A stretch of 64,000 bases of DNA from Candidatus Micrarchaeota archaeon (GCA_018812715.1 JAHJCT010000011.1:114614-178613), one strand, 5' to 3'. Positions 1 through 39,676 are shown, counted from the stretch's first letter. Translations and numbers: made by a program. The notes: generated from the sequence alone by a model not told the origin.

Positions 1-366
1 CAAAGAATAAAACGGCTAGAAAAATCCAAGATTGTGCGCAAGTATCATGCTGATGTCGACTATAAAGCACTCGGATATGATATGCATGCAATGGTAATGA
101 TTAAAATAAAGAAAAGTGGGCTTGAAGATGAACATCTTATGGATGCTGTCGCAAAAGTTCCTGAGATTGTAGCACTTTATGCAGTAAGTGGCGCTGCAGA
201 TGTCGTGGCAATAGTAAAAGCAAAAAACAGAGATGATCTTGTTCGTATTCTTAGTTATATCCAATCTCAAAAGTCGGTATTAAGAACTACTAGTTATCTC
301 GTACTTGTTACATACAAAGAATCCTATCAGTTTAATCCACTTGTTCCAGGCCCAACAAAAAGCTAA
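1..366 (+). CDS. Lrp/AsnC family transcriptional regulator (5' truncated by window edge)
   Basis: Reading frame is open from nt 1. Translation ...QRIKRLEKSKIVRKYHADVDYKALGYDMHAMVMIKIK... parallels the complete Lrp paralogs at 4669 and 5158 (HTH end followed by RAM/ACT-like domain). TAA stop. Confidence 0.75.
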   Translation, partial: QRIKRLEKSKIVRKYHADVDYKALGYDMHAMVMIKIKKSGLEDEHLMDAVAKVPEIVALYAVSGAADVVAIVKAKNRDDLVRILSYIQSQKSVLRTTSYLVLVTYKESYQFNPLVPGPTKS

Positions 367-2006
367 CAACTTACTTTTCTATATAAATAGCCGTACATAC
401 CACTATCAAAACCATCAACTATCGTCTGTCTTAATGCACCTTCAAAAATAAGTGTTTTTGGTTTATGCGGCCCTATCAATAGATCACTAAAATGCCTTTT
501 TCTTGATGGCCATGAGGCATTTGCTGGCGGATCCCATTCATCAATAACTAACAATGATCCACCTCTTTTCAAGTGTTTTAATGCTTGGTTTATCATTTTT
601 CTACGTCTTTCTTCCTTCATTGTATGGAGTTTTTGCGCAAGAATTATCGTTCCGTACTTTTTTTGATGTAATCTCTTTCTGCTCGGATTAATCACAATAT
701 CTTCGCCAAATGGTATTAAGTTGACCCAATTCTGTCTTTCACCGTTCACTGGCACATAACCATTTCTAAAGGATTCATCCACCCTTTCAAATGCTTCAAT
801 AATTTTTCTAACAGCCATAGCTCTTGCTCTGTTTGCCGCATTAACACTAACTGAGTCATCCTCTACAATTTCGCCTCGAGTGCTTGGTAGTTTTCTTCCT
901 CTTCTCTCTGCTTTATCAGGATCTTTACGATAAATAAGCAGATACATAGAATGTTTAGCATCAATTCTTGCCTTTAATTCTGCTACAAATCGTGCCTCTG
1001 GGATTCTCTTAATTATTTTATCTCTTAGGGGATTACGATCATTACCAATAGGTCTGAATATCTCCCTGAACATTCTGCTTATTATCATTGCCATTGGACT
1101 TGTATGCTGTTCAGAAAGCTTAGCAGGCCATTCATCTATCAGTACGAAATAGCCATTCCATGCAAGATCTCTAAATATTCTTTCTATAACTTCTGCTTTT
1201 ATCTGCTCATGTTCTGGATTTTCCATAACCCCGTCAGGGTCTTTTTCAAGTTTGATTAGTTCCGGATCTGCAATTAGATGAAGTGTTTGTGATAAAATAG
1301 AAGTATCAACAGGTTCAATTACTGCTGCTTCTCTTAGGTCATAAGAAGTATATTCAACATCGCAAAGTCCTTCTAATTTCCTTCTTGCTATGCCTTTCAT
1401 CCGTGGAGAAAGGTCATTTAGTGTTATCCTAATTTTAGCAATTTCTTCTGGATCCATATTGTCACAAAGTAATTTTATCACAGTTCCAGTACCGCCACTC
1501 TCTTCTCTTATTGAATCTCCTAGTATTGGTTTTGTATCACTACCAAATCCAAGTCTGCGCAACTCCACAAGTTGTTTAATTAGATTATCTACTGCTTTTT
1601 CATGGCCAGTTGTTCTCATGTGGTCGTCATAGCTCTCTGCCCATGTCTCAAATAGGTTTGTAATCGCTCTTTTAGGATTATCTTCTCTTTCTATCACAGT
1701 GCTGATTCTATCTACTAATGTAAGAATTGCCCTATTGCGAACCTCTTCTGGCAGTTGTACTGCTTTATCAAAATATCCAAGAAGCATAACAAGATTTTCG
1801 AGACTATTCCCGCCCATTTCACTGAGAATTTCATTTACTAATCTTCCATATTCTCTTTCCAAAACAACCTGGGCTTCGGATACTTCCGCAAGGTTTTCTG
1901 CTACTTTGCCTATGTTCTCATTATGATCTATTAATGGTGAGTTCATCCCATTCATCCGATTTCGCGGCGGCGTCACAGTTGCAACAGTGCCTCTAGGTCC
2001 CTGCAT
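363..2006 (-). CDS. hypothetical 547-aa protein with methyltransferase-like N-terminal region (paralog of 5618..6571 and 32917..34014)
   Basis: Shares the motif block ...W/FAESYDDHMRTTGHEKAV... followed by a degenerate GxGTG stretch with the two clearer SAM-MTase ORFs. Long C-terminal extension has repeated LIDEW(P/D) segments. No family recognised beyond this. Confidence 0.35.
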   Translation of the reverse strand: MQGPRGTVATVTPPRNRMNGMNSPLIDHNENIGKVAENLAEVSEAQVVLEREYGRLVNEILSEMGGNSLENLVMLLGYFDKAVQLPEEVRNRAILTLVDRISTVIEREDNPKRAITNLFETWAESYDDHMRTTGHEKAVDNLIKQLVELRRLGFGSDTKPILGDSIREESGGTGTVIKLLCDNMDPEEIAKIRITLNDLSPRMKGIARRKLEGLCDVEYTSYDLREAAVIEPVDTSILSQTLHLIADPELIKLEKDPDGVMENPEHEQIKAEVIERIFRDLAWNGYFVLIDEWPAKLSEQHTSPMAMIISRMFREIFRPIGNDRNPLRDKIIKRIPEARFVAELKARIDAKHSMYLLIYRKDPDKAERRGRKLPSTRGEIVEDDSVSVNAANRARAMAVRKIIEAFERVDESFRNGYVPVNGERQNWVNLIPFGEDIVINPSRKRLHQKKYGTIILAQKLHTMKEERRRKMINQALKHLKRGGSLLVIDEWDPPANASWPSRKRHFSDLLIGPHKPKTLIFEGALRQTIVDGFDSGMYGYLYRKVSC

Positions 2007-2164
2007 TACTGTACGCCCTAATTTTTTTGAACTTTGTATATTCCCACCCGTTCGAAACAGCCTTTACATTACTAGTGATACTAAATAGTATTTTCTTTCA
2101 AACATATTTAAAAGTAATGTTTTAGTTGATGGACGTTTAACGTAATGTGTTTAATTGATGTGGT

Positions 2165-2359
2165 TTAAGTTCTAGGATATCTAAGTAATCTTTCTACTAA
2201 ATCAACATGTGAAAGAAACATTCTCCTGCAACAAAATCTTTCAAGACCCAGTCCATCTAGTACTACATCTGGTTTCTTCTCTTTTGTCTCTTCTTTATAC
2301 TGTTCGTAAAGATGCCCTATCACAGTTCCACACGTAAAACATCTGATTGGAAATTCCAT
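2165..2359 (-). CDS. rpoN: DNA-directed RNA polymerase subunit N (Rpo10/RpoN)
   Basis: 64 aa, MEFPIRCFTCGTV..YEQY...LGLERFCCRRMFLSHVDLVERLL matches the conserved CxxC...CC zinc motif of archaeal RpoN/Rpb10. Sits downstream of S9 as in the conserved archaeal operon. Confidence 0.9.
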   Translation of the reverse strand: MEFPIRCFTCGTVIGHLYEQYKEETKEKKPDVVLDGLGLERFCCRRMFLSHVDLVERLLRYPRT

Positions 2360-2365
2360 AAAACA

Positions 2366-2824
2366 TCACCTGTAGGATTTTTGGTATCTTGCTCTTGCCT
2401 TTGGACCGCGATACTTCTTTGATTCAACACGTCTTATATCTTCCACAACGAGGGATCTGTCTATTTCAATGAATTTTTCTCTTAACTTTAATTCTTTGAA
2501 GTATACAACTAATGCATTTGCTATTGCTGTTCTGACAGCCTGTGTTTGTCCCATAACTCCGCCGCCATTAACTTTCACAGAAATATCAACATTATTAGCT
2601 TCTGGACCAACATATCCTAATGGTTCTTTGATCAGTTCTCTTATGTAATTGTTATTCAGGGCTTCCACATTAATACTGTTTACTCTTACAATGCCCTTTC
2701 CTTTTTTTATTGTGGCTCTTGCTATACTTTCTTTTCTTTTTCCTCTTACAACAAATGAAATAGTTTCTTTTTTTGTTTTCTTTGGTTTTTTCTCCGTTGT
2801 TTTCTTCGTTTTTCTACCCGCCAT
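2366..2824 (-). CDS. rps9: 30S ribosomal protein S9 (uS9) with Lys-rich N-terminal extension
   Basis: C-terminal ...GGGVMGQTQAVRTAIANALV...RRVESKKYRGPKARARYQKSYR is the uS9 signature. ORF extends to 2857, but the start at the internal ATG (2822-2824) avoids overlap with L13. Confidence 0.85.
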   Translation of the reverse strand: MAGRKTKKTTEKKPKKTKKETISFVVRGKRKESIARATIKKGKGIVRVNSINVEALNNNYIRELIKEPLGYVGPEANNVDISVKVNGGGVMGQTQAVRTAIANALVVYFKELKLREKFIEIDRSLVVEDIRRVESKKYRGPKARARYQKSYR

Positions 2825-2829
2825 ACACA

Positions 2830-3246
2830 TCAACCTGAATAACCTATATTTTTGCAAAGATCATAAACTGTTATATGTTTTGATATTCCGTCAAAAGATG
2901 CATTTTCAAGCTTTAAATTTTGCTGAAGGTTTTTTGGATTTCCTGTATATACCCTTAATCTCTTTAATGCCTTTTCTCCTCTCGTGCTCTTTTTTGGGAG
3001 CATGCCTCTTATCATTCTTTTAACAAGTAAATGGGGCATTCTTGACCACTTCGGAGAGTACTCTGGCGTTGCCTTATTTTTCAAACGTCTTTTTATCAAA
3101 AGTCTTTCACTGATCTGTTTAGGATTTCCGATCAGCACAATTTTTTCTGCATTAATCAGACTCACTTCTTCCCCAAGAATCAGCTTCTTTGCTATCTGGC
3201 TTGACATTCTTCCAAAAATCAGATCAGTTCCATCTACAACTATCAT
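2830..3246 (-). CDS. rpl13: 50S ribosomal protein L13 (uL13)
   Basis: MIVVDGTDLIFGRMSSQIAKKLILGEEVSLINAEKIVLIGNPK... matches the uL13 N-terminus. Track ORF extends to 3255; internal Met chosen as start. Confidence 0.85.
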   Translation of the reverse strand: MIVVDGTDLIFGRMSSQIAKKLILGEEVSLINAEKIVLIGNPKQISERLLIKRRLKNKATPEYSPKWSRMPHLLVKRMIRGMLPKKSTRGEKALKRLRVYTGNPKNLQQNLKLENASFDGISKHITVYDLCKNIGYSG

Positions 3247-3251
3247 GAGCA

Positions 3252-3596
3252 TCACTTCACAATCATTACATCTCTGCCTTCTGGATTGGATTTATGAAGG
3301 TTTTCAATACTTATTGCCTTTCCACCGGCTGCTGTTATCAGTTTTTTTGCACTTTCACTAAATGCAAATGCTGCTATTGTCATTTTTTTAGACAACATCC
3401 CTGAACCTAAAACTTTCCCAGGTATGACTATTGTCGAGTCTTCTGCTCCATAAACTTCGATCTTGCTCAGATTTACCTCGACCTTTTTTCTTCTGGGTCT
3501 TGATAGCTCATAGGCTACTTTTCTCCAAAATGGTTTCTTGTTCTTCATCAACTCAGTTATAAGTGTCTGAAGAATTTGATTATCTTTCTTCTTCAT
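3252..3596 (-). CDS. rpl18e: 50S ribosomal protein L18e (eL18)
   Basis: 114 aa basic protein, ...RPRRKKVEVNLSKIEVYGAEDSTIVIPGKVLGSG... typical of archaeal L18e. First gene of the L18e-L13-S9-RpoN block. Confidence 0.8.
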   Translation of the reverse strand: MKKKDNQILQTLITELMKNKKPFWRKVAYELSRPRRKKVEVNLSKIEVYGAEDSTIVIPGKVLGSGMLSKKMTIAAFAFSESAKKLITAAGGKAISIENLHKSNPEGRDVMIVK

Positions 3597-3682
3597 AGTT
3601 CGCCACCCAGGCTCGCCCTCTTTCTGAGGACTATTTAGAATTGGGTGTTAATTATAGAAGAAGTAAAGTTTAAAAAGTCATC

Positions 3683-4525
3683 TCAGAGAGCTGCGAGGAG
3701 CAATCCAAGCATACCAAGCAGAAAAGCAATCAAGCTCATGTTCCTTGCAAATTTGAATGCTCTTTTTGTTAGTATCTTGTAACAGATCACAGCTATTAGC
3801 CCATCTGCAGCTACTATGAGAACCAATGATATCGAACTTGCACACAAACCAAATGAGAATGGCAATATGCTAAGAGGTATAAATAAGAGGTAAAGTCCTA
3901 TTGCAACCAAAAGTGATGGCCTTTCTCCGATAACTATTGGAAGTGTTTTTGATTTTCTTGCTTTCATATCGCCTTTCATGTCCTGAACAGATTTGATTAT
4001 CTCTCGTGCCAAGCCTGCCACAAATCCTAAGACTGCAAGAACTAATACAACGACTGAAAGATCTCCAGATACAACAAAATTACCGAATATAAAAGGAATC
4101 GCCATTGTCAATGCAATATATATATTTCCAACTAATGGCATATCCTTGAGTTTCCAGTTGTACGTCACAGCAGCAATATTAAAGAACAAGGCAATGACAA
4201 AAGCGATATTATTTATGAAATAAGCCAAAACAGTTGATAGTACTAACATTAGTATGGAGAAACGAAATGCAAATGCAGGACTTATTGTTCCTTTAACTAA
4301 TGGCCTATTTTTCTTATTGAGTTTATCAGTTTCAATATCAAAATAATCATTCAATGCAAAAGAGCCCATTTCACTGAACATTGGAACCAATAGAGAAAGT
4401 ATGATGTAGTATTCAAGCGGCGGTAGCGTTCCTAAAGTTATTATCTCTGCTACCAACACAGCCAGAGCCAGCAGTACTGCATGTTCAAATCTAGTTAACT
4501 TTAACACTTCCATCATACCAATCAA
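3683..4525 (-). CDS. UbiA-family membrane prenyltransferase (DGGGP synthase-like)
   Basis: Polytopic membrane protein with NDYFDIETDKLNKKNRPL, the UbiA Asp-rich NDxxDxxxD motif. 280 aa fits archaeal digeranylgeranylglyceryl phosphate synthase size, but the specific substrate is not determinable. Confidence 0.6.
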   Translation of the reverse strand: MIGMMEVLKLTRFEHAVLLALAVLVAEIITLGTLPPLEYYIILSLLVPMFSEMGSFALNDYFDIETDKLNKKNRPLVKGTISPAFAFRFSILMLVLSTVLAYFINNIAFVIALFFNIAAVTYNWKLKDMPLVGNIYIALTMAIPFIFGNFVVSGDLSVVVLVLAVLGFVAGLAREIIKSVQDMKGDMKARKSKTLPIVIGERPSLLVAIGLYLLFIPLSILPFSFGLCASSISLVLIVAADGLIAVICYKILTKRAFKFARNMSLIAFLLGMLGLLLAAL

Positions 4526-4668
4526 ATTTACTCTTGAATTTAAAATATTTTTTGTTTGTTAAAATCTCACGTTTTATCATAAATTCTGTACAAATTACAC
4601 AAAATTAACTACTTCTGCGCACTAAAGGAACATGATATTATATCCTTTACGGTTCATTATCTTAATAT

Positions 4669-5148
4669 ATGAGAGGCAAAATTTTGAAACTTCCATGGGA
4701 GTTAGATCCATTAGACATGTCAATACTTTTTCATCTTAGAACAAATTCCAAAACACCAATCAAGAAAATGGCAAAAGATCTTGGCATGCATCCGAACACC
4801 CTCATCCAGAGAATAAAAAAAATGGAAAAGGAAGGCGTGATAAAGAAATATTCTGCTGATATTGATTATACTAAGGCTGGTTTTGATCTGCATTTGATGG
4901 TTCTGATAAAAGTAAAAAGAGGCCGTGTTGCTTTAGACCAGCTCAAAGAATTAACAAGAATTGCTGAAATAGAATCAATCTATGCAACCACTGGTCTTTG
5001 GGATGCAGTTGCAATGTGCAGGGTAAGGAACCGCGAACATCTTCTTGGTGTTATAGAGAAAATAGGCGACCATCCCATTGTGCTGAAGACCTCCAGCTCT
5101 ATTGTTCTCTATTGCTACAAATCTAATGATGATTATAATCCATTCTGA
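4669..5148 (+). CDS. Lrp/AsnC family transcriptional regulator
   Basis: 159 aa with HTH (TPIKKMAKDLGMHPNTLIQRIKKMEKEGVIKKYSA) plus C-terminal RAM-like domain. Confidence 0.85.
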   Translation: MRGKILKLPWELDPLDMSILFHLRTNSKTPIKKMAKDLGMHPNTLIQRIKKMEKEGVIKKYSADIDYTKAGFDLHLMVLIKVKRGRVALDQLKELTRIAEIESIYATTGLWDAVAMCRVRNREHLLGVIEKIGDHPIVLKTSSSIVLYCYKSNDDYNPF

Positions 5149-5157
5149 GGTGTTAGA

Positions 5158-5631
5158 ATGAAAATTGATGGAATAGATAAAAAGATTCTTGCCCAGCTTG
5201 TGGAAAATTCTAAAATTATGTCAAAAAAATTATCCAGAAAATTAAGGATACACCCAAATACACTTTTGCAAAGGCTGAAGAAGCTGGAGAAGGAAGGCGT
5301 TCTTGTAAAATATTCGGCAGTAGTTGATTATAGTAAATTTGATAAGCGGCTTCAGGCAATCATTTTCCTTAATATAGAGATGATGAAGGACTGGGAAACT
5401 ATCCTCAGACCATTATCCAAACTTCCAGAAGTCGTTTCTTTTATTCTAGTAACTGGGGAGCATGATGTACTTCTTATTGCCAGACTTAAGGATGAAACAC
5501 ATCTTGCCAATTTCCTGAGAAGATTGCAGACTAACAAGGTTGTGACAAAAACAACAACCCATTTAATTCTCGATTACTACAAACAACCTTACGAGTATAA
5601 TCCTATTGGTGAAGAACTTAGATTTTCCTGA
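5158..5631 (+). CDS. Lrp/AsnC family transcriptional regulator (tandem paralog)
   Basis: 157 aa, KLSRKLRIHPNTLLQRLKKLEKEGVLVKYSAVVDY... 9 nt downstream of the previous Lrp gene. Confidence 0.85.
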   Translation: MKIDGIDKKILAQLVENSKIMSKKLSRKLRIHPNTLLQRLKKLEKEGVLVKYSAVVDYSKFDKRLQAIIFLNIEMMKDWETILRPLSKLPEVVSFILVTGEHDVLLIARLKDETHLANFLRRLQTNKVVTKTTTHLILDYYKQPYEYNPIGEELRFS

Positions 5632-6571
5632 AAAGATGCAGTCTCATTACATGCTCAGAATCGATTGGATAGACTGCCCGTTCTTCTAATCTTTCGAATC
5701 CATTTGTTGTAAATAGGCCACTTAATTTAGCCCTATGTTTTATAGGAGCAGCAACCGACCTTATAAACAAACTTATTGGTTCTATATGCGGTGTTGGAGA
5801 AATCCTAAATGGATCTTCTTCCATTACAACTGCAATTCCCCCATGTGCAAGTGCATTTCTAATGGCCCTAACCATCATTACCTTATCCTCATCTGGGATA
5901 AGATGGAAAGTCTGTGAACAAATAACAGTACGGAAACATGGGTATTCATCTGGAAGGGCATAGGCACTGTAATCTGTAAATGTAACTCCGTTGCCTCTTA
6001 GTTTTTCCCTTGCCTTTTCAAGCATTTTTGAAGATATTTCATTTGCATAAATCTTTCCATTGGAAACCTCGGGAAGTGCAAAGAGTAAGGATCCAAATTT
6101 CCTTTGCATGACTTCTGATTCTCGCATCATGTCAGCAGTTGCCATGAAGTCCATCACATATCTAATTACTTCACCTGTTCCTGCAGTTATGTCCAGGATT
6201 GGCGTTCTGAGATGCGGACCAGCATAAAACAATACATTTTTGATGGCTTCATAATGGCCTGTTGCAATCATATGTTCGTCATAAGTTTCTGCAAATGCAT
6301 TATATAGCATGGTGAAGAATTTTTCTCTTTGTGCTAATGAAAATCTTGAATATGTGCCACGTATAAAATTCTCCATTTGTTCTAAATCAGTACGTTGTCT
6401 CACTTTTTCTCTCGCAAACTCATTCACAAGACCAAAAAATCTCTCGAGGGAAATTTCGCTTTGTTTTTCTGCAATCGAAATTAATTGTCCGAGAGGTCCG
6501 CTTGGTTCTATAATTTTATTAGGAAATTTACACGTTCCCCCAGTAGGTCCATTCTTCTCCCTCCTCCTCAT
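5618..6571 (-). CDS. class I SAM-dependent methyltransferase
   Basis: Motif I LDITAGTGEVIRYVMD, post-I acidic residue, motif ...ALAHGGIAVVME. N-terminal block AETYDEHMIATGHYEAIKNV resembles UbiE-type YDxMN..GxH region. Paralogous to 363..2006 and 32917..34014. Confidence 0.7.
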   Translation of the reverse strand: MRRREKNGPTGGTCKFPNKIIEPSGPLGQLISIAEKQSEISLERFFGLVNEFAREKVRQRTDLEQMENFIRGTYSRFSLAQREKFFTMLYNAFAETYDEHMIATGHYEAIKNVLFYAGPHLRTPILDITAGTGEVIRYVMDFMATADMMRESEVMQRKFGSLLFALPEVSNGKIYANEISSKMLEKAREKLRGNGVTFTDYSAYALPDEYPCFRTVICSQTFHLIPDEDKVMMVRAIRNALAHGGIAVVMEEDPFRISPTPHIEPISLFIRSVAAPIKHRAKLSGLFTTNGFERLEERAVYPIDSEHVMRLHLFRKI

Positions 6572-6676: not shown

Positions 6677-7609
6677 ATGCCCTATAAAGTTGAACTTATC
6701 TCCCAACAAACAAAAGAAAAATTAATGGAAAAACATTACTCATCAGATTTATTTGAAAGAAAAGCTGCCATCCATGGAACATGCGTCAAACTCTTTACTG
6801 ATTCCAAAAATTTCAAGGAAATGTGGGAAGACAATTTTGAACCAATGCCAGAATGGATAAGGCCTCATGCAAGACTGTTTTCCATTTCCGGTCAAAAGTT
6901 GCGGATAAGATATGAACCTCTTTCAAAAACAGCAATTGTTGAAGGCTGCGACTATTACGGCTGGATAAAGAGCATAGCACTTGCAATTGTTGCCGATTTT
7001 ATGGAAGATTTCACCTCAGAACACAGAAGATATTCAGTGCATGGTTCTTTTGTTGATTGTGGTGGAAAGGGCATGGCAATCATAGGTCCGTCAGGCAGTG
7101 GAAAAACCACTCTCACATATGGCCTTTTGCGCAAAAGAAACTGCCACTTTCTTACTGATGACTGGTTTTTTGTAAGACTAATAGACGATGTTCTTGTTTA
7201 TTCCTCAGAAAGAAATTCATACATACGAGGTAATTTATGTGAGGATTGGCCAGAATACAGAGAAAAACTCAAAGGCATCAAAAAAGATTCAAAAGGCAGG
7301 GCAATTGTAGATGTAAAAAGATTTTTTGGTGAATCCAGGATAAGAAAAACATCCACATTGAGTACTATTGTTCTTCTTACCCGCAATAAGAAACTTCCAC
7401 CAATATCAAAACTCACAAAACAAAAGGCACTAGAATTCATGCTAAAAAACGATTTCTGCAATCCTCATCAATTGGTAAGATCAAAAGAAAAGATGAACAA
7501 GAGGAAACAATTCTTTACAGAATTTTTCAATAAAGCACCAATATATCTACTAAACACAATTGAAACTCCCCATGAAAGCCTGGAACGATTAGAAAAAATC
7601 ATCTCTTGA
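6677..7609 (+). CDS. HprK-like P-loop kinase family protein
   Basis: VHGSFVDCGGKGMAIIGPSGSGKTTLTYGLLRKRNCHFLTDDWFFV follows the HPr kinase C-domain pattern hHG..v...G.G.li.G.SG.GK(S/T)..a..L...g..l.aDD. Specific substrate unknown. Confidence 0.5.
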   Translation: MPYKVELISQQTKEKLMEKHYSSDLFERKAAIHGTCVKLFTDSKNFKEMWEDNFEPMPEWIRPHARLFSISGQKLRIRYEPLSKTAIVEGCDYYGWIKSIALAIVADFMEDFTSEHRRYSVHGSFVDCGGKGMAIIGPSGSGKTTLTYGLLRKRNCHFLTDDWFFVRLIDDVLVYSSERNSYIRGNLCEDWPEYREKLKGIKKDSKGRAIVDVKRFFGESRIRKTSTLSTIVLLTRNKKLPPISKLTKQKALEFMLKNDFCNPHQLVRSKEKMNKRKQFFTEFFNKAPIYLLNTIETPHESLERLEKIIS

Positions 7610-8487: not shown

Positions 8488-9777
8488 ATGAAAACACGAA
8501 TAGTATTGATAACGCTGCTGTTCGCCCTTATTTTTCTTTCAGGTTGTGTGAAGATTTCATACGATGCTGAGCAGCAATTTAATGAGGATGGTACGTCAGT
8601 ACTTACAGTTACTGAGTATGTTGGTGTGAGTGATGCAACAATGGATAGTCTTGATGACTTTCCAAGTTCTACTGATGCCTCAAGCATAACAACTCAATTA
8701 ATGCTGGAATACTACAAGAGCTCGGCATACTCACAATTTCTCTGTGATTTAATTGAAGATTCTTCAGTTGAATCATGCACGGCCCATAACGACGGATCTG
8801 TAACTGCAACAATAAATCTTGAACCTGGTGATTTCTACTCCTTTGAAAAAACCACTGATTGGGTTTCTCTAAAGGAAAAAAGCAAATACACTATTGATAA
8901 GGTTCCATTGATCTCTTATTACGCCAAGAAAGACAATGATGATTACGAAGATCTTTTCCAGGAAGATTTAGTTGAATATGTTGAAGAGAATATCGACACT
9001 TATCTTACTGAAGATATCCATTGTTCTGCTTCATACCCATTCGAATGTGAATTCTTGTCCGCCTCAACGCTTGAAGTAAGCACCAGTTCTTATACTCCTA
9101 AACGTATCCAATGGATAGGGTGCTCTGACCTAGAAAGCTGGGACTTTTTCTTCATGGAAGAAGAAGAGGCAAAGAATGCAACATCAAACGTAATAGAGCT
9201 TAACACTACTATAACATCTACCAGTCCACTTACAGTTGCGCTTTCCTGTCCACCAAATTCTCAATCAATAGTTGTATTCTATCTTCAGGAATCCTATTCT
9301 GGAGATATGACTAGCGAACTGGATGCCTTTGATATACAAACAAAAGAGGACATAAAACAAGAAATACTTGAAGGCCTTGAAACCGATACCTCCAGTATTG
9401 ACACTACCTCAAGCGTCTCATCTTCTGATACCACCGATTATTTCCTTAACTTCAAGACATCCAAATTCCTCACATCTACATTTGAGGAGTTATCTGATCT
9501 TGTTTCGTCTTCAAGTTATGTGAAATCAGAGGTTGAAATAAACTATGAAGCCTCTTTCCCAGAAACAGCCGTAAATGCAACCATTGGAGCAGAAAAACTT
9601 GCTTTGTCAGATAATACATTGGAGCTTGGATTGGATGATCTTGAAACATTGCCAAAAGGTTCCTTGATTGTCACTACTGAGAAAGAGCTCTCTCCGTTGG
9701 GCATTTACACATGGGCGATACCATTGCTTGTATTTGTAGCAATTGTTATCGTTGTGATACTGGGACTGAAAAAATAA
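8488..9777 (+). CDS. secreted acidic lipoprotein with C-terminal transmembrane anchor
   Basis: N-terminal signal with lipobox-like LSGC, very acidic Ser/Thr-rich body, C-terminal TM helix WAIPLLVFVAIVIVVILGLKK. Confidence 0.5.
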   Translation: MKTRIVLITLLFALIFLSGCVKISYDAEQQFNEDGTSVLTVTEYVGVSDATMDSLDDFPSSTDASSITTQLMLEYYKSSAYSQFLCDLIEDSSVESCTAHNDGSVTATINLEPGDFYSFEKTTDWVSLKEKSKYTIDKVPLISYYAKKDNDDYEDLFQEDLVEYVEENIDTYLTEDIHCSASYPFECEFLSASTLEVSTSSYTPKRIQWIGCSDLESWDFFFMEEEEAKNATSNVIELNTTITSTSPLTVALSCPPNSQSIVVFYLQESYSGDMTSELDAFDIQTKEDIKQEILEGLETDTSSIDTTSSVSSSDTTDYFLNFKTSKFLTSTFEELSDLVSSSSYVKSEVEINYEASFPETAVNATIGAEKLALSDNTLELGLDDLETLPKGSLIVTTEKELSPLGIYTWAIPLLVFVAIVIVVILGLKK

Positions 9778-9833: not shown

Positions 9834-10415
9834 ATGACCAGGAGAATGATTGCTTTCTCACGAACAGACAAAGCCTCTAAAATCGTTCAAGAAGTGCTAG
9901 CAGGAACCAATTGCTTAGAGTGCAAATCATGTTGTAGAACAAGAGGGATACATAGAACTCCAGTTGGGGGTACGGATCCGCATCATGAAGATATACGTAA
10001 ACTTGCCAAAAACAAATTTCCTGAGGCTATTCATCCAGAAATTAACGATGGCTTTGATATCCTATCTCCAGAAAGCTGCGCATTTCTAAAAGACGATCGA
10101 TGTTCTATATATGCCATACGCCCGGTAATATGCAGTGTATTCCCATTCATACCGCAAAGTGTTACAAGTTATTCTGATAGTAATGGTTTTACTACAGGTC
10201 TCAAAGTGGTCTTAACAAGTTGCTGTCCACCCCTAAGACAACTAAGCGATGAGGGTGTTCAATATTTAACACTTCACGATCTGCATCAACTTTCAGATAG
10301 AACCTTCCTGACTCGCTCCTTCTATACAGTTCTCTTTTATATGGAGAGAGGCATCGTTTTTCAGTCAGTGCGTTTTATTTCAAAAAGCGGAGATCTCGCC
10401 TTTCCCATCCTATAA
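9834..10415 (+). CDS. YkgJ/UPF0153-family CxxCxxCC metal-binding protein
   Basis: CLECKSCCRTRG... plus a later C...C cluster, the arrangement typical of the putative Fe-S/zinc-chelating YkgJ (FliB-like) family. Confidence 0.45.
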   Translation: MTRRMIAFSRTDKASKIVQEVLAGTNCLECKSCCRTRGIHRTPVGGTDPHHEDIRKLAKNKFPEAIHPEINDGFDILSPESCAFLKDDRCSIYAIRPVICSVFPFIPQSVTSYSDSNGFTTGLKVVLTSCCPPLRQLSDEGVQYLTLHDLHQLSDRTFLTRSFYTVLFYMERGIVFQSVRFISKSGDLAFPIL

Positions 10416-11165
10416 ATGCGCTCTAAAGTAATCTTCCACAGCTAATTGAAATTCTTTATTATTTGAATAACCAAACTTGTCACTGAGCTGAAGCAAATAT
10501 GGGTGTGGAGAGAAATGGGGGACAGTAATAGCATACCCTTCCATATCCATAGATGCTGATTTCATCTGAGCACCGCCATATTTTTCATATACTCCTTTGA
10601 ATTTTGCAGAACTCGCTACCCGTTCTTTAGAAACTATTCTCCCCTTCACTTGTTCATGCCTAAATAAAAATGACACCTTCTTTTTCTCCACTTTGCCAGT
10701 TACAAGATTCTTCATGGGCTTTTCAATATTTCCTCGTATTACTATCCGTTTCTCCTCAACCTCGCTATCATATTCTCCTTTTTGTAGGTGAAGCAACACC
10801 AGAGAAGTAAGGAATTCTTTTCCTTCCTTAAAATTTACTGATTTTGAAAATAACACTAAATTATTTCCTACAAAGAAAATCGAACGCATTGCTCCATGGG
10901 CAAATGAATTACCAAGACGTTCACCATCAAGCATGAGATTTTGGAAATAATTATTCGGTACAGCATAAGCAGTACGTGCCTCAAACATAGGCTCTATCAG
11001 TCGGATAGGCCATTCCATAGAAGAATAAATGCTCCGGGTAAGTGGCCGCAGCTCTTTCACTATTTCTTTTGAATATTCTAATCGTGCTTCGTCCTCTTTT
11101 AGCATTTCATTTATAAGATGACCGTATTCAGGTATGTTTTTTGCTTTCTTACAAAGTTCGCACAT
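10410..11165 (-). CDS. hypothetical protein
   Basis: 251-aa ORF with no recognisable motifs. Coding-like composition. Confidence 0.4.
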   Translation of the reverse strand: MCELCKKAKNIPEYGHLINEMLKEDEARLEYSKEIVKELRPLTRSIYSSMEWPIRLIEPMFEARTAYAVPNNYFQNLMLDGERLGNSFAHGAMRSIFFVGNNLVLFSKSVNFKEGKEFLTSLVLLHLQKGEYDSEVEEKRIVIRGNIEKPMKNLVTGKVEKKKVSFLFRHEQVKGRIVSKERVASSAKFKGVYEKYGGAQMKSASMDMEGYAITVPHFSPHPYLLQLSDKFGYSNNKEFQLAVEDYFRAHL

Positions 11166-11203: not shown

Positions 11204-12274
11204 ATGGACAAAAAATTAATTCTTCAGATTGCAGTAGTAGTGGTAGTGATATTCTTTCTTTTACAGCCATTAGGTATGGGAGGCCGACTTCCAGACTTCC
11301 TCTCATTTTTCAATAATGAAAATACAGCGACTCAGTTAACTGGCCTAACCGTATTCAACGCTACAATAAGGACGTATGATCCCTATCTTATACTAGCATC
11401 TGATACTAACCAATCAATCATAAATGAGCTAAATACCAGGGCCGATGTTAAAAGCGTGGTAACCGATGCCCAGGGGATTATAGTTGAAACAGAGACGAGA
11501 GATGATGTGTATCCTTTAGCATCCTATCTAAGAAGTAAAGGGGTCTCTTCACTATCCCAAGCAAATCTAGCACTCCCTCAAACAATACAAGTTGATGTAA
11601 ATGGAGAACAAAAAGAAATATTCACATCATCAGGAATAATACAAGTTATTTCAGAGGCAGTAGTTGATGCCGATACTGAAGTAACAGTCTCTATGATTGC
11701 CGTAATAAGCGGTAATCAATTAGTACAATACCAATCTCCATCAATCCTTTTCCAACAAACAACTATCCTGGTAAATGCTCAGGTCGTTGATCTTAATTAC
11801 AAACTATATACTTATACGATCCCATGGGAAAGCAGAAACTCCCTCGGTAATCTCTCTCAATATGGTGAGTATACTTATAATAAAAAAGACTCTATTATAT
11901 TCAATCCACCACTTGATATAAATCAAATACTCATAAAAAAACAATTCAGTTACATCGATTATATCGATGCTGGAAGTGCACAAGTAGCTTCTGATTTTGA
12001 CAACATTACTCAGTTGGAATCAAACTTCCAGGATGTTTCATATTCGCTTCCATCTTCACAACTAACAATAAAAACAAATGAAACGCCAAATATCTCTTTC
12101 AATGCAACTGTTTCTTATAATTATAATTTACTGCTTGAAACGGATTATGAGTTTGAAAACCCGGTTATAACTACAGATCTAAATGAAGAACAAAATGCAA
12201 CTGTAGAATTAAATATAAGCATAGTTGCACTTGGCAAAAAGGTAGTTTCTATAGGGAAAATCAGCCCATCCTGA
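11204..12274 (+). CDS. secreted/membrane-anchored hypothetical protein
   Basis: N-terminal hydrophobic signal anchor IAVVVVVIFFLLQPLG, Asn/Thr/Ser-rich body. Confidence 0.45.
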   Translation: MDKKLILQIAVVVVVIFFLLQPLGMGGRLPDFLSFFNNENTATQLTGLTVFNATIRTYDPYLILASDTNQSIINELNTRADVKSVVTDAQGIIVETETRDDVYPLASYLRSKGVSSLSQANLALPQTIQVDVNGEQKEIFTSSGIIQVISEAVVDADTEVTVSMIAVISGNQLVQYQSPSILFQQTTILVNAQVVDLNYKLYTYTIPWESRNSLGNLSQYGEYTYNKKDSIIFNPPLDINQILIKKQFSYIDYIDAGSAQVASDFDNITQLESNFQDVSYSLPSSQLTIKTNETPNISFNATVSYNYNLLLETDYEFENPVITTDLNEEQNATVELNISIVALGKKVVSIGKISPS

Positions 12275-20181: not shown

Positions 20182-21149
20182 TAACTCTTGGAATAGAAAG
20201 TACTGCCCATACTCTTTCAATTGGCATTGAAGAAAATGGCAAAATTCTTTCCAATGTTATCGACATGTATAATGGTGGCAATGAAGGTTTAATCCCAAGA
20301 AAACTTGCTGATCATCATGCTGCTGTTTTTGCATCAGTACTTTCAAAAAGTCTGGAAATCGCAGGAACTACAATAAAAGATGTGGATTTGATTGCATTCT
20401 CTCAAGGACCTGGTATAGGTTCTCCACTTTCAGTTGGAGTGAGTGGAGCAAAATTCCTAGCATTAATTCATGATAAAAAAATAATTGGAGTAAATCATCC
20501 ATATGCCCACGTAAAGATAAGTGAACATTGTTGCAATATGGAACAACCTCTAGTTCTCTATCTTTCAGGTGGCAATTCACAACTTTTGATTGAGGAAAAT
20601 GGTTATTATGATGTTCTTGGAGAGACCCTTGATATAGGCATAGGAAATCTTTTCGATAATTTTGCCAGATCTTTAAAATTAGAACATGCACATGGTGCTG
20701 CTTTAGCTAAACTTGCAGAAGGGGGTGAGTATGTTGAACTTCCATATACTGTAAAAGGAATGAATCTTGTTTTTTCTGGTTTGCTTACTTCAGCAGAAAA
20801 ACATATTAGTAAACATTCAAAGAAAGATTTGGCATTTTCATTAATGGAAACTTCATTTGCAATGACCTGCGAAGTAACAGAACGTGCGCTTTTTCTTACA
20901 AAAAAGAAAAACCTGCTTGTTTGCGGTGGGGTTGCACAAAATCGAAGACTTCAAGAAATGCTGAAGATAATGTGCAAAGAAGACGATGTAATATTTGGTG
21001 TTGCTCCGGATGAATATAACAGGGATAATGGAGCAATGATAGCTTATGCTGGCTCTTTACTTTATAAGAAATATGGTGCAATGCCAATAGAAAATTGTAT
21101 TCCAATTACTAATTATAGAATAGACAGAATGAAAGAGATTCTAGACTAA
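20178..21149 (+). CDS. kae1: tRNA threonylcarbamoyladenosine biosynthesis protein Kae1/TsaD
   Basis: [17 protein letters not shown]... N-terminus and VNHPYAH metal-binding motif of the Kae1/TsaD (ASKHA) family. 323 aa, not fused to Bud32. Confidence 0.8.
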   Translation: MITLGIESTAHTLSIGIEENGKILSNVIDMYNGGNEGLIPRKLADHHAAVFASVLSKSLEIAGTTIKDVDLIAFSQGPGIGSPLSVGVSGAKFLALIHDKKIIGVNHPYAHVKISEHCCNMEQPLVLYLSGGNSQLLIEENGYYDVLGETLDIGIGNLFDNFARSLKLEHAHGAALAKLAEGGEYVELPYTVKGMNLVFSGLLTSAEKHISKHSKKDLAFSLMETSFAMTCEVTERALFLTKKKNLLVCGGVAQNRRLQEMLKIMCKEDDVIFGVAPDEYNRDNGAMIAYAGSLLYKKYGAMPIENCIPITNYRIDRMKEILD

Positions 21150-26305: not shown

Positions 26306-28981
26306 ATGAATAAAATGTCTATTTTTCTTTTATTATTGACGTTCGTTGGCTTTGCATCGTTTAGTAATGTAACTGACAATGTCAATTTGGAATGGTCTGA
26401 TAATAATTTCCAAGCAGTTGATATCGCTGTTGGAAATATTGATGATGATCCACAACTTGAAGCTGTTATAGTAGGAACAGCAGGATCAGCTTGGGAAGAG
26501 ATGGGAATTGCAGTATTTGAATTGTCTTCTGATGCAATAACCTTTGAAGATAGTTTTTATCTTTCTCCTAGTGCACCACTTGATGCATATTATCCAACAT
26601 CAGTAATGCTGTGTGATGTTGACAATGATGGGACTAAAGACATTGTTACTGGCGGGTATATCGACTGGGGCGTCATAATGGATAAAGGCTTTATTTACAC
26701 TTATGAATTTGATGGAACTATCTCTCCGCAATATGATTATGATTCAATGAGCTTTACCAGGATTGAAGCGATAGGTGCAAGACAAAGTGCAACTGGATGC
26801 AGCATACATGCGGCTGGAACAAAGAATACTCCTGGACACCAAAGAGAATATACTGCCATTTTTAATGCCGCCTCAGGCATTTTAAATATGACTCATGAAT
26901 TCACAAAAGATTGGTTTACTGATTCAAGTGCTTATGGAATTGATTTCTTCCAAAATGGAACTGTTGTGACTGCTGGAACTGCTGAGGGCGGATGGGTAGG
27001 CAACCAATATGTCAGCCTTACAATAAATCCAGGAAATCTTTCACATACATTTGGTTTCACGGGAACAAACAAAGAAGCAACATCCCTTGTAATAGCAAAT
27101 ATTACTTCATCAGATCCAGAAGAAATTATCATTGGTGTTGATAGCTCTTCTATAATTACTGATACTGCCTATTTGTATGTCTTTAATAATAGCCTTAGCC
27201 AGTTAGCATATGTTTCATTTCCTACTGGTTATGGACTCTACAATTCATACTTAAATGATGTAGAAGTGTGCGACATTGATAACGATGGAGCAAGAGAGGT
27301 TTTTGCAGCTGTTGAATATCACACCAGCAGAGTATACAGCATGTTAAAAGGACACAATACCTTACAGATTTTCCATCTTGTTGGTCTTTTGGGAACATCT
27401 GAATATAATACTACAACTATAGGGGCCGGTTATGAATCTAGTCTTCAAGCACTTCGTTGTGCAAATACTGATGATGATACAAGAATGGAACTTGTTAGTG
27501 TCATAAATCTTGCTAATAGTACAAATAGTGACTATAAAATTGTGCTTGCAGTGTTAGAAGATGAACCGATAGTTCCAGAAATTACTGTGATCTCACCTTC
27601 TGATGGAGAAGCACTTAGTGGTATGTTTACTCCATCAATAAATGTCACTGATGATGCCGCTCCAGGCGATCTAATAGTACAATACAGAATCATTTCATCA
27701 AATATGACAAGTTATTACCAAACCATGAATAATACTAATTATCATTTCTATGCAACTGTCAATCTTTCATCTTACCCTGGTGGTGGGTATACACTTCAAT
27801 TCAAGGCAACAGATGATGAAGGCAATGAAGATATTGAAGCAGTTCACTTCTTTGTAGACAATACTCTCCTTACAGTAACTCTAGTTCAGCCTGCTGAAGG
27901 ATCAATTATTGCTCCAGGAACAGAACTATACTTCTCCAGTTCGCATCCACTTATTTCTTTCACATACTCTATAGACAATGGCACTACAAATGATACCTTA
28001 AGTGCACCTTATTTAGTTGAAACAGGTACTTGGGACGATGGACCAACATATGTAGATGTGTGGGCTGAAAGTATAACTGGCCAACTTTTCCATGATGTTT
28101 TTGAAATTGCCATAGATGGAACAGCACCAGAAATAACTGCATATCCATCTGATCTTACAATCTATCCTGGTGAAAATGTTGCAATCTTTGTACAAGATTA
28201 TGCACTTGGCTCACTTGTTTTTGAATATAGCAATTTCTCCGTAGATTATACTGGTGCTTCACTACCCATTGTACTTGACACCAGTAGTTGGGACGCAGGA
28301 ATATTTGGTGTAAGAGTTATTGCAATAGATGTTGCCGGCAACCCATCAACCGAATATTTCGGATTCAATGTTTTAGCAGCAGAAGTGCCGTCTGAACCTG
28401 CAGGGAACCAGAGCATGGCGAACCTTAGTGCTGAAGTTGCTGATTTGATAGGTACTGTTGAACAAGAAATTGCAGATGCAGTTGCTGCAGGTGAAGAAAC
28501 ATCACTTGCAAAAAAAGCATTAAGTGAAGCAAAGCGGCTTTTTTCTCTTGGTAAATATAAAATGGCACAACGAGCAGTTCTTGATGCAAGGGATAAGATA
28601 GGCCAATCAGTTCCAGGCGAAACTCCTCCGACAGAACCTCCGCCAACAGAACCGCCCCAACAGCCTCCGGTTCAGCCACCTCAACAACCACCGCAGCAAC
28701 CCCCGGCAAAACCCCAACAACCTCCGGCTGAAGAAATTCCAGAACAAGACAATACAATACTGCTTGCAGGTGCATTATTACTAGCATTACTGGTGCTTGC
28801 AGCATTAGCCTACTTTGTTTTAAGGAAACCTAAACCTCCTGCTGAACCTCCAGTAGAGGAAACTGAACCAGAAGAATTTGAAGCACAAAAAATAGCTGAA
28901 CCTCAAGAAGTAAAGCTCGAGGAATTACTGGCACAAAAAGCAAAGAAAAAGCGAAGGAAAAAGACTAAGAAAAAGAAGTAA
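26306..28981 (+). CDS. large secreted surface protein with FG-GAP/propeller-like repeats, Pro-rich linker, TM anchor and polybasic tail
   Basis: Signal peptide. CDVDNDGTKDIV and CDIDNDGAREVF are FG-GAP/VCBS-like Ca-binding repeats. Linker PPTEPPPTEPPQQPPVQPPQQPPQQPP, TM LLAGALLLALLVLAALAYFVL, tail KKKRRKKTKKKK. Confidence 0.5.
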   Translation: MNKMSIFLLLLTFVGFASFSNVTDNVNLEWSDNNFQAVDIAVGNIDDDPQLEAVIVGTAGSAWEEMGIAVFELSSDAITFEDSFYLSPSAPLDAYYPTSVMLCDVDNDGTKDIVTGGYIDWGVIMDKGFIYTYEFDGTISPQYDYDSMSFTRIEAIGARQSATGCSIHAAGTKNTPGHQREYTAIFNAASGILNMTHEFTKDWFTDSSAYGIDFFQNGTVVTAGTAEGGWVGNQYVSLTINPGNLSHTFGFTGTNKEATSLVIANITSSDPEEIIIGVDSSSIITDTAYLYVFNNSLSQLAYVSFPTGYGLYNSYLNDVEVCDIDNDGAREVFAAVEYHTSRVYSMLKGHNTLQIFHLVGLLGTSEYNTTTIGAGYESSLQALRCANTDDDTRMELVSVINLANSTNSDYKIVLAVLEDEPIVPEITVISPSDGEALSGMFTPSINVTDDAAPGDLIVQYRIISSNMTSYYQTMNNTNYHFYATVNLSSYPGGGYTLQFKATDDEGNEDIEAVHFFVDNTLLTVTLVQPAEGSIIAPGTELYFSSSHPLISFTYSIDNGTTNDTLSAPYLVETGTWDDGPTYVDVWAESITGQLFHDVFEIAIDGTAPEITAYPSDLTIYPGENVAIFVQDYALGSLVFEYSNFSVDYTGASLPIVLDTSSWDAGIFGVRVIAIDVAGNPSTEYFGFNVLAAEVPSEPAGNQSMANLSAEVADLIGTVEQEIADAVAAGEETSLAKKALSEAKRLFSLGKYKMAQRAVLDARDKIGQSVPGETPPTEPPPTEPPQQPPVQPPQQPPQQPPAKPQQPPAEEIPEQDNTILLAGALLLALLVLAALAYFVLRKPKPPAEPPVEETEPEEFEAQKIAEPQEVKLEELLAQKAKKKRRKKTKKKK

Positions 28982-29054: not shown

Positions 29055-29465
29055 ATGTACCGATTAGCTGTAAGACCATCTACAACGAAACCTCAACCAT
29101 CTTATCCATCTACGATCGAAGCGTTGAGAAATGGAAAAATCAATAAACCAATCTCTGCTTTAATCAAAATGATCGAAAAAGGGGATCCAACAGATAGATG
29201 GATGGCATGTGTTGAAATACATGATTTAGCCCTTGAAAATCCACAAAAAGCGGCACAAGCACTTCCAGCACTCTTAGATGCATTTGAAAAATGGGGGGCA
29301 GGAACCAAATGTGTTGTTGCTGAAACTTTAATAGCAATTGGTGATGCTCGTGTTTTACCAACATTAATGCGTGCAGTAAATCATGAAAATGCAGAAGTAA
29401 GGGAAAGAGTTCATTATGCACTTAGTGCTATTCCAGCTGTTTCTTTAGAAGTTATAAGACAATGA
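29055..29465 (+). CDS. HEAT-repeat (PBS-lyase type) protein
   Basis: Repeated ...[12 protein letters not shown].../...[24 protein letters not shown]... HEAT-like units. Confidence 0.45.
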
Positions 29466-29856
29466 TCCCTTTATCTCCATCAACTTCTACTTTTTGTCCA
29501 TTTTTCAGAATTTTGTAAATATCAGTTTCTGGTTTATCCACCATTGGTATTTTCGAGATTATTGCACCTACCGCGATTATTGGCTCTGCACTAATATTGA
29601 TTATTGCTGCAGGTGCCTTGCCATTTTTTGCAAGCTGGAGCATCACATAAGAACCCACTGTTGATCCTTTACCATTTGGAAAAACAAGAATCTTCCCGGC
29701 AATATTTTTTCCTTTTAATGGATGCCATGGCTCTATTATTTCACCGCTCGTTGGATCGACTCCACCAAGAAATCCAAGTGGTTCGTTGCTGATAAGAACC
29801 TCTCCGGAACCTTTTCCACGTGATATTGAACGACATTTGATCCCCATGATTATCAC
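29452..29856 (-). CDS. phosphomevalonate dehydratase small subunit (AcnX swivel domain, DUF126)
   Basis: 134 aa GKG-rich swivel-domain protein ([21 protein letters not shown]...) immediately downstream of, and overlapping, the DUF521 large subunit. Confidence 0.7.
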
Positions 29857-31022: not shown

Positions 31023-31031
31023 TGCAATACC

Positions 31032-32856: not shown

Positions 32857-32916
32857 AATATTTCGTTATATTTTTCTCTTTTAAATATAGTACGTAAACA
32901 ATAATCGTTCGACAGA

Positions 32917-34014: not shown

Positions 34015-34132
34015 ATTCTCATCTCAAGTGTTAGTTCTTGATTATTAGTGTATTTCATCATATATTAATATTTCTAGCAAAAATTTACAAAAAATGAAAG
34101 CTTTTTATTAATTTTTATAAAAAATAGCAATT

Positions 34133-35104: not shown

Positions 35105-35115
35105 GCAGTTTTTAA

Positions 35116-39646: not shown

Positions 39647-39676
39647 ATTTATATTTCTTATGATCTTATTTTGCCT

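Follow-up and report, generated by a model that had tools for sequence, protein, structure and literature searches.

What does it mean when an archaeon carries several paralogous enzymes, each lying next to its own copy of one kind of transcriptional regulator? This question is raised by a 64-kb stretch of DNA from a Candidatus Micrarchaeota (DPANN) archaeon, hereafter called the window, which has a G+C content of 36.6% and from whose start all coordinates are counted. It encodes three predicted methyltransferases, which we call A, B, and C, and each of them adjoins a gene of the Lrp/AsnC family. A phmmer search over the 64 kb recovered exactly four Lrp/AsnC genes and three enzymes of the A/B/C family, and no others; the chance that all three enzymes would adjoin an Lrp gene under random gene order is ~0.002. 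All belong to known kinds of protein, of which they represent new members and new architectures, and their repeated pairing is hitherto undescribed: no paper on enzyme-Lrp pairs was found in the literature that we searched. The genes and domains in question are the following (aa, amino acids; nt, nucleotides; HTH, helix-turn-helix).

1..366, plus strand: LrpN, 3' part of an Lrp/AsnC gene (RAM domain, PF01037, E 8.5e-13)
363..2006, minus strand: open reading frame (ORF) of methyltransferase A, 547 aa (Methyltransf_25, 29.9 bits against a cut-off of 27)
921..1673, minus strand: catalytic core of A, residues ~112-362 (signature block at nt 1581..1637)
372..662, minus strand: C-terminal half-domain repeat of A, residues ~449-545 (hhalign, 98.7%, E 4e-16)
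4669..5148, plus strand: Lrp2, full-length Lrp/AsnC gene (HTH_AsnC and RAM)
5158..5631, plus strand: Lrp3, full-length Lrp/AsnC gene (HTH_AsnC and RAM by Pfam)
5618..6571, minus strand: ORF of methyltransferase B, 317 aa (Methyltransf_25, E 3e-12; PF01209, 24.4 bits against 20.1)
32917..34014, minus strand: ORF of methyltransferase C, 365 aa (PF08915, E 3.9e-21, and Methyltransf_25)
33550..34014, minus strand: editing-type domain of C, residues 1-155 (PF08915)
33469..33525, minus strand: signature block in the methyltransferase core of C (core residues ~157-365)
34133..35104, plus strand: LrpX, double-domain Lrp/AsnC gene (two HTH_AsnC stretches and one RAM match)

A, B, and C are paralogous class I methyltransferases

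The three ORFs, and the peptides by which a preliminary description of this DNA had linked them, were located exactly as reported there. The peptides (ESYDDHMRTTGHEKAVDNL, residues 124-142 of A; ETYDEHMIATGHYEAIKNV, residues 95-113 of B; EFDDYMLESGHYRAQHMAL, residues 164-182 of C) are indeed shared, but the block that they form is not N-terminal, as had been thought, and lies instead at the start of the catalytic core. By pairwise BLASTP, A is connected with B (E 3e-15) and B with C (1e-10), while A and C reach merely 0.007. Comparison of family profiles aligns B with A over 216 columns (99.9% probability, E 5e-36) and A with C over 192 columns (98.9% probability, E 1.7e-17), and both alignments extend from the quoted block through the C-terminus. 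A, B, and C are thus homologous class I S-adenosylmethionine (SAM) methyltransferases and paralogues of one another, as the preliminary description had held.

The family signature comprises YDxHM-x5-H in the cap helix, GxG, E-x-P after beta5, and I-D-x-x-H near the C-terminus. Among 50 sequences drawn from four sub-families, the His of 'TGH' (A135/B106/C175), two glycines of motif I (A172, A174), and the Glu of 'E-x-P' after beta5 (A292/B252/C305) are fully invariant, and I-D-x-x-H (A348-352/B303-307/C350-354) is kept in all sequences with residues at this place (48 of 50). Given the homology and the invariant positions across the whole core, the quoted block is one part of this signature. Motif I and the acidic residue at the end of beta2 read E168-SGGTG and D198 in A, D127-ITAGTG and E178 in B, and D196-LCCGSG and D222 in C. 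All three proteins match generic class I SAM-methyltransferase Pfam models. The class I Rossmann-like fold is seen in AlphaFold2 (AF2) models of A (predicted local distance difference test score (pLDDT) 87, predicted template modelling score 0.85) and C (pLDDT 74) and is assigned to B by Pfam only; Foldseek searches with the A and C models returned hundreds of class I methyltransferases at E<1e-7. With motif I and the fold in place, A, B, and C qualify as class I SAM methyltransferases, and the corresponding activity is predicted for each of them.

Around this core, the three proteins are built differently. A consists of ~110 aa of N-terminal helices, the methyltransferase core, and a 185-aa C-terminal half-methyltransferase repeat; these helices and this repeat take the place of the 330-aa extension of unknown function that had been ascribed to it. 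Its SAM motif, previously called degenerate, is intact: E168, G172-T-G174, and D198 are kept, the family consensus is ILEMSxGTG, and Methyltransf_25 scores above its cut-off. Residues 449-545 duplicate A's own beta4-beta7 half (residues 230-362), the order of secondary structure is repeated in the C-terminal part of the AF2 model, and the repeat also aligns with B residues 213-254 (BLASTP, E 0.002). Because it is a duplicate of the beta4-beta7 half and has no SAM motif I, we regard the repeat as a vestigial half methyltransferase domain. The Foldseek matches of A are class I methyltransferases, with nematode PMT1 (PDB 4KRG) at the top, and its homologues fall into 30 clusters. In B, ~85 aa of N-terminal helices precede the class I SAM methyltransferase core (signature block at nt 6233..6289); its homologues form 59 clusters, and all of those with an organism name are Micrarchaeota.

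The family is expanded in DPANN archaea and belongs to the UbiE superfamily. A profile search of 1.84 billion representatives, which gave ~16,000 family hits, also found stand-alone methyltransferases of ~200 aa with the same signature. The differing accessory domains of A, B, and C suggest that their substrates differ as well. Elsewhere, the same core (YDxHM..H / EExPF / PIDxxH) is fused to a membrane AlaE alanine-exporter domain (among P0144, P0150, P0151, and P0199), and there are two more N-terminal fusions of this core without a Pfam match, which by eye are CYTH-like and radical-SAM-like.

The pairing with Lrp regulators is conserved in Micrarchaeota

As the preliminary description stated, A and B meet their regulators tail to tail (overlaps of 4 nt between A and LrpN and of 14 nt between B and Lrp3), and C stands head to head with LrpX at a distance of 118 nt. 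Nearly all convergent junctions in the window overlap by 4-14 nt (7599..7609, 10410..10415, 12261..12274, 21146..21149, 29452..29465, and 36506..36509). Since this holds for most such junctions, the 3' overlaps of enzyme and Lrp genes are not special and reflect general genome compaction.

We compared the window with 28 loci of species-representative genomes, 8 metagenome loci, and 7 further contigs, which cover ~30 Micrarchaeota species-level genomes; labels such as L004 and L008 denote the compared loci. One gene order is near-universal: SMC, a cytidylyltransferase, two unknown genes, a variable stretch, agmatinase, an HprK-like gene, B, Lrp3, UbiA, L18e, L13, S9, RpoN, A, and LrpN. Within this order, A and LrpN are convergent and adjacent in 15/15 loci, at most 152 nt apart, and in ten of these the gap is <=7 nt or the genes overlap. 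Lrp3 lies downstream of B in all 20 loci and is directly adjacent to it in 8. A fourth pair exists in relatives, where a methyltransferase D (480-570 aa) is convergent with Lrp2 and adjacent to it in five of five loci (gap <=7 nt or overlap in four), located either upstream of B (L008, L011) or between Lrp3 and UbiA (L018, L024, L033). C is found beside a double Lrp wherever its upstream side is visible, that is, in the window, L004, L005, L006, L040, and L042. The gene downstream of C varies (UbiX, threonyl-tRNA synthetase (ThrRS), a class Ib synthetase of the tyrosyl- or tryptophanyl-tRNA synthetase type, and others), and so does the insert between C and LrpX, which may be absent, Aminotran_4, or AAA_14; the class IV aminotransferase stands there in L004 and L005. 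The proposed adjacency is thus upheld in other genomes, and the two positions of D-Lrp2, like the constancy of C-LrpX in changing contexts, argue for pairs that are kept as units, beyond synteny.

The preliminary description had assigned to B a tandem pair of Lrp genes. Only the nearer gene, Lrp3, is the conserved partner; Lrp2, which in the window ends just 9 nt from Lrp3, is an orphan regulator here, since its partner methyltransferase D is absent from the window. In two relatives (L022:9319-9810 and L024:9316-9804), the stretch from the HprK-like gene to B contains one more Lrp2-like paralogue, which is divergent from B; it comes without methyltransferase D and is another orphan regulator. 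These orphan genes indicate that a regulator can outlive its enzyme.

The regulators themselves have the expected parts. Lrp2 and Lrp3 contain both HTH_AsnC and RAM (PF01037). LrpN shows the RAM part only, the window edge cutting through the gene, and full-length orthologues with HTH and RAM occupy the same position in 15 loci. LrpX combines two HTH_AsnC units in one chain with one detectable RAM. The recognition helix HPNTLLQR is conserved in the Lrp proteins, and the regulators evolve far more slowly than their enzyme partners, with a mean distance of 0.16 for LrpN versus 0.70 for enzyme A. Neighbour-joining trees resolve clean clades of A, B, C, and D and, likewise, of LrpN, Lrp2, Lrp3, and LrpX; C and LrpX are distant from the rest in their respective trees.

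Promoters of the enzymes and of the regulators

Three regulatory regions in the window are of interest:

34015..34132: bidirectional promoter of C and LrpX (118 nt, two back-to-back TATA boxes)
2103..2145, minus strand: promoter of A (31-nt element and TATA-like sequence), conserved in 15 species
4586..4602, plus strand: palindromic box upstream of Lrp2 (pattern scan and comparison with LrpN promoters)

Marked conservation is seen in the promoter shared by C and LrpX. In a multiple alignment of four genomes, the 118-nt region displays 68-71% nucleotide identity, compared with 50-61% in the adjacent coding sequences and 39-55% identity at the level of the C protein. The spacer of ~35 nt between the two TATA boxes is conserved and constitutes a candidate operator. 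Where a gene has been inserted in front of LrpX, the promoter remains next to C. At L040, where the identity of the double Lrp to its counterparts is only ~30%, the conserved promoter is absent, while C is no more divergent there than elsewhere; though a single case, this is the best indication of regulator-target coupling. An RNA element was considered and rejected: RNAalifold folded neither the C/LrpX intergenic region nor the LrpN leader into a consensus structure, and throughout the 64 kb every Rfam family stays below its gathering score. We therefore read the conservation of both regions as acting at the DNA level. At L042, a GC-rich ORF of 190 aa without a Pfam match (L042:1089-1664) lies between the conserved promoter and C; the inserted segment has 55% G+C, against ~20% in the matching intergenic regions of other loci, and may be a recent insertion.

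The promoter of A contains a 31-nt element, TTACGTTAAACGTCCATCAACTAAAACATTA (2115..2145), which is immediately followed by a TATA-like TTTTAAATA (2103..2113). The element starts right after the stop codon of the RpoN gene (~2166..2360, minus strand, just before this promoter), is present in one copy per locus, and has the consensus TT.CGT.AA..G.CCAT.AA.T.AAACAA...TTTT.AA in 15 species.

Outside the window, LrpN promoters comprise ~115 nt of conserved promoter and leader (for example L008:17347-17474 and L012:13083-13210, as well as 12 other loci). They include a conserved TATA box and the palindromes TTGTG-N6-CACAA and TTGTTA-N5-TAACAA, variant copies of which retain their symmetry, and 17 of the 68 matches to the palindrome pattern in 413 kb fall into LrpN promoters. 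A related palindromic box, CTGTACAAATTACACAA, is located 67 nt upstream of Lrp2. The palindromes of the LrpN and Lrp2 promoters are probably autoregulatory operators. One operator serving all modules was sought by an inverted-repeat search of four intergenic regions of the window and was discarded, as only AT-rich quasi-palindromes appeared. Palindromes near the 3' end of Lrp3, considered as operators at the junction, are merely codons of the conserved peptide xD(Y/F)YK.

C is fused to a threonyl-tRNA synthetase-type editing domain

The preliminary description made no mention of an N-terminal ThrRS editing domain in C. Residues 1-155 match the archaeal ThrRS-type domain PF08915 with 76 bits (cut-off 30.2), profiles of PDB entries 4RRF and 1Y2Q with E 2e-9 and ~1e-9, respectively, and Foldseek targets with TM-scores of 0.69-0.74 (0.73 for the P. 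abyssi domain); a PDB profile of ToxA is matched by C as well. In the P. abyssi domain, seven side chains are close to the scissile bond, namely Pro80, Phe81, Ala82, His83, Tyr120, Lys121, and Glu134 (PMC4491819). C keeps Phe81, Ala82, His83, and Lys121 of this pocket (F97-A98-H99 and K137 in its own numbering) and has Trp (W135) at position 119, like the M. jannaschii and A. pernix domains. Pro80 has become Ala and Tyr120 an invariant Asp, and the region of Glu134 is replaced by an invariant PLHHxN segment in which Glu134 cannot be aligned.

The profile search of 1.84 billion representatives returned 31 clusters at E<1e-30, of which ~20 are full-length editing-methyltransferase fusions; one fusion is annotated 'Candidatus ainarchaeum', and stand-alone editing-like proteins were found as well. 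Judged by these homologues, the fusion is a conserved architecture, and no description of it was found in the searched literature. Given that most of the aminoacyl-adenosine pocket is kept, C may act on, or be controlled by, an aminoacyl-adenosine-like ligand, for example the 3' end of an aminoacyl-tRNA.

At two loci, the gene just downstream of C encodes an unusually long ThrRS of 804-939 aa (L004:7157-9571 and L005:7158-9977), which carries two editing modules, the archaeal PF08915 and the YbaK/ProX-type PF04073. In the window, C and LrpX are located inside a cluster (29452..37408) that resembles the archaeal mevalonate pathway. This context is not common to the relatives, except that UbiX follows C in L038 too. 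The other genes of the cluster are:

29853..31022 and 29452..29856: large and small subunits of AcnX
31032..32324: UbiD-like decarboxylase
32308..32856: UbiX
35116..35889: isopentenyl phosphate kinase
36506..37408: GHMP kinase

Other genes of the window

The gene divergent from B (6677..7609, plus strand) encodes an HprK_C-like P-loop protein (PF07475, E 2.4e-10) and keeps its place in every locus that reaches far enough. Conserved syntenic genes without a Pfam match are found at 8488..9777, 10410..11165, 11204..12274, 26306..28981, 38236..39372, and 39626..40615. Two giant ORFs of 2171 and 1853 aa (41931..48446 and 56533..62094) contain right-handed beta-helix/NosD repeats, the second together with laminin-G and fibrinogen-like domains; both are probably surface proteins.

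Origin and possible role of the enzyme-regulator pairs

How can the repeated pairing be explained? The reading that we prefer, and to which we give an even chance, is that A, B, and C were each inherited with their own Lrp paralogue from a duplicated ancestral pair, and that each Lrp tunes its partner enzyme. The sets inherited together would be A with LrpN, B with Lrp3, and C with LrpX, joined in relatives by D with Lrp2, and most likely a single ancestral enzyme-regulator pair was duplicated before the Micrarchaeota diversified. The Lrp proteins would be ligand-sensing transcription factors that regulate their own synthesis via TTGT-N8-ACAA-type palindromes, and each could tune transcription of the partner enzyme to a small, probably amino-acid-like effector tied to the substrate or product. 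Such tuning is most plausible for C and LrpX because these genes have a strongly conserved bidirectional promoter in common. We regard a coupling of regulator and enzyme as plausible in the case of C and as no more than hypothetical in those of A and B. The preliminary description had envisaged a duplicated, ligand-responsive regulatory module; the conserved paralogous pairs sustain the first half of this idea, while evidence in cis is confined to the C pair.

Several observations weigh against our reading. The enzyme tree and the regulator tree do not clearly agree, A and B being sisters in one and LrpN and Lrp2 in the other, with distances near saturation. In 12 of the 20 loci, 154-1722 nt with small genes lie between B and Lrp3, and the window, L022, and L024 retain Lrp2-type genes that have no enzyme D. 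The element in A's promoter occurs nowhere besides A promoters, and the upstream region of B is without extended conservation. In a pattern scan, the palindromic boxes were not enriched upstream of A, B, or D; they lie upstream of Lrp genes, and none is common to the modules, contrary to the shared Lrp-type operators that had been anticipated. As the convergent pairs of A, B, and D have no operator common to the Lrp promoter and the enzyme promoter, the regulatory link is one that we infer for these three enzymes. Structural and profile neighbours are generic methyltransferases, mostly acting on small molecules, and give no substrate. Finally, the adjacency of A and B to their regulators could be inertia, since the whole block from SMC to LrpN is syntenic across the phylum.

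The last point leads to the alternative that the pairing is a historical accident. Here, segmental duplication would have copied an ancestral enzyme-Lrp pair whose members remain adjacent through slow gene-order change in such small genomes, and the Lrp proteins would regulate other genes, with no functional link to the methyltransferases. In keeping with this view, nearly all loci show the same collinear block of ~17 kb (SMC...HprK-B-Lrp3-UbiA-L18e-L13-S9-RpoN-A-LrpN), convergent genes in this genome overlap at their 3' ends as a rule, the search for a shared operator was negative, and there are orphan Lrp2 genes. However, the C-LrpX linkage persists in several genomic contexts and D-Lrp2 at two positions, the C/LrpX promoter is conserved, and four paralogous pairs, independent of each other, have been preserved in proteins whose identity is only 40-50%. 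We therefore consider an accident of history rather unlikely, although it deserves to be taken seriously.

Alternatively, the Lrp proteins could chiefly be subunits or allosteric, ligand-sensing partners of the enzymes, in the way that Trm112 activates class I methyltransferases. Such a partnership would account for the convergent orientation, which is unusual for a regulator and its target, for the presence of one Lrp paralogue per enzyme paralogue, and for the much higher conservation of the Lrp proteins when compared to the enzymes (LrpN 0.16 versus A 0.70). We nevertheless consider it improbable, given that HTH_AsnC is intact with a conserved HPNTLLQR recognition helix, that palindromes such as DNA-binding autoregulators typically use as operators are present in the Lrp promoters, that no Lrp-methyltransferase fusion occurs among 95 homologue clusters, and that Lrp2 genes exist as orphans. 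Antisense coupling, by which transcription of each gene would run into its partner and cause reciprocal expression, is also improbable: the two overlaps in the window (4 nt and 14 nt) and the gaps of <=7 nt or overlaps at 10/15 A-LrpN and 4/5 D-Lrp2 junctions leave no space for a terminator between the convergent genes, but overlaps mark most convergent junctions here and thus lack specificity, the distance from B to Lrp3 is often 0.15-1.7 kb, and C and LrpX are divergent.

With regard to our preferred reading of co-inherited, regulator-tuned enzymes, a chemical theme may be discerned. Weak pointers to amino-acid or aminoacyl-tRNA chemistry are the editing domain, the fusions to AlaE, the neighbouring aminotransferase and synthetase genes, and the membership of the regulators in an amino-acid-sensing family. 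A bolder proposal, which we offer as a long shot, is that the family consists of methyltransferases linked to amino acids or aminoacyl-tRNA, each under its own amino-acid-sensing Lrp, and that the re-tooled editing domain of C (Tyr120 to Asp, PLHHxN) would hold the 3' end of an aminoacylated tRNA, or a different group that resembles aminoacyl-adenosine or threonylcarbamoyl-adenosine, for methylation by the fused domain. If true, this would be a tRNA-dependent methylation of an undescribed kind, in organisms obliged to scavenge amino acids from their host.

For genomes as small as those of Micrarchaeota (~1 Mb), keeping three to four pairs of enzyme and regulator from one family is a notable investment. 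To our knowledge, almost nothing is known of regulation and of small-molecule and RNA modification in DPANN archaea. Four paralogous Lrp proteins with recognisable operators, two strongly conserved methyltransferase promoters, and a proofreading-domain fusion now provide a defined, testable system, and the substrates of A, B, and C could reveal how symbionts sense or modify amino acids or tRNAs.

Comparison with known systems

By fold or profile, the neighbours of the family include CysG/BelI, MM_2633, ToxA, PH0226, CmoA, phosphoethanolamine and phosphatidylethanolamine methyltransferases, and NNMT. The likeness to UbiE/MenG noted in the preliminary description is borne out. Similar to UbiE/MenG/COQ5 (PF01209), the enzymes are class I Rossmann SAM methyltransferases, and the N-terminal cap helix YDxMN..GxH of these proteins corresponds to the YDxHM..TGH block. 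Enzymes of the UbiE type place the cap helix over the SAM site. PF01209 matches B with 24.4 and C with 21.8 bits (gathering cut-off 20.1) and does not match A; a stand-alone relative reaches 90 bits. Scores against the NCBIfam equivalog models of UbiE/MenG are 16-35 bits and hence far below the cut-offs of 158-420, so that A, B, and C are not UbiE orthologues. In contrast to UbiE/MenG/COQ5, the A/B/C family has the IDxxH and ExP signature and accessory domains peculiar to it. The surroundings do not suggest quinone biosynthesis either: the neighbours are ribosomal proteins, a UbiA-family prenyltransferase, mevalonate genes, and aminoacyl-tRNA synthetases, and no other quinone genes were seen in any locus. 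In the window, the homologues of UbiA, UbiX, and UbiD are grouped with genes of lipid metabolism and the mevalonate pathway.

Among solved structures, the CysG/BelI carboxyl O-methyltransferases and MM_2633 (PDB 9FCQ and 3DTN; E ~3e-6 over ~80 residues) come nearest to B in sequence. Like B, these are small class I enzymes with the post-beta4 motif (S)xxxH-L-x-D-x-DK, and E178 of B aligns with Asp77 of CysG; the overall similarity to B is marginal, however. CysG has a His-His-Asp calcium site (PMC11408123). A metal site of this type was rejected for the present family, as B has H223-L224 in place of H122-H123 of CysG and C is without His there.

A resembles the nematode phosphoethanolamine methyltransferase PMT1 in that an active methyltransferase domain is followed by a second one. 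In PMT1, the second domain is vestigial. Unlike in PMT1, the second part of A comprises only the beta4-beta7 half and stems from an internal duplication in this family, and the two structures superpose poorly (root-mean-square deviation (rmsd) 17.8 A, 9% identity). A likeness to Trm14/TrmN was dismissed because alignment was achieved only with an rmsd >20 A. So was membership in a defence system: PADLOC detected no partner genes, and its sole match, to mad2 (37-46 bits), is partial and concerns a generic methyltransferase domain.

The editing-type domain of C agrees with the archaeal ThrRS editing domain (PF08915; P. abyssi 1Y2Q/2HL1) in family, in its DTD-like fold, and in the pocket residues Phe81, Ala82, His83, Trp/Tyr119, and Lys121; it departs from it at positions 80 and 120 and around Glu134, and it is fused to a methyltransferase and not to the synthetase core.

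Archaeal Lrp/AsnC regulators encoded divergently from the gene that they control are well known, as exemplified by Sulfolobus BarR with its aminotransferase, LysM, and Ss-LrpB. The systems described here, read from sequence alone, have in common with them the combination of HTH and RAM, palindromic boxes of the TTG...CAA type, and, in the case of C and LrpX, a divergent promoter. They differ in that three of the four pairs are convergent, that LrpX is a covalent double Lrp, and that each putative target is a methyltransferase paralogue.

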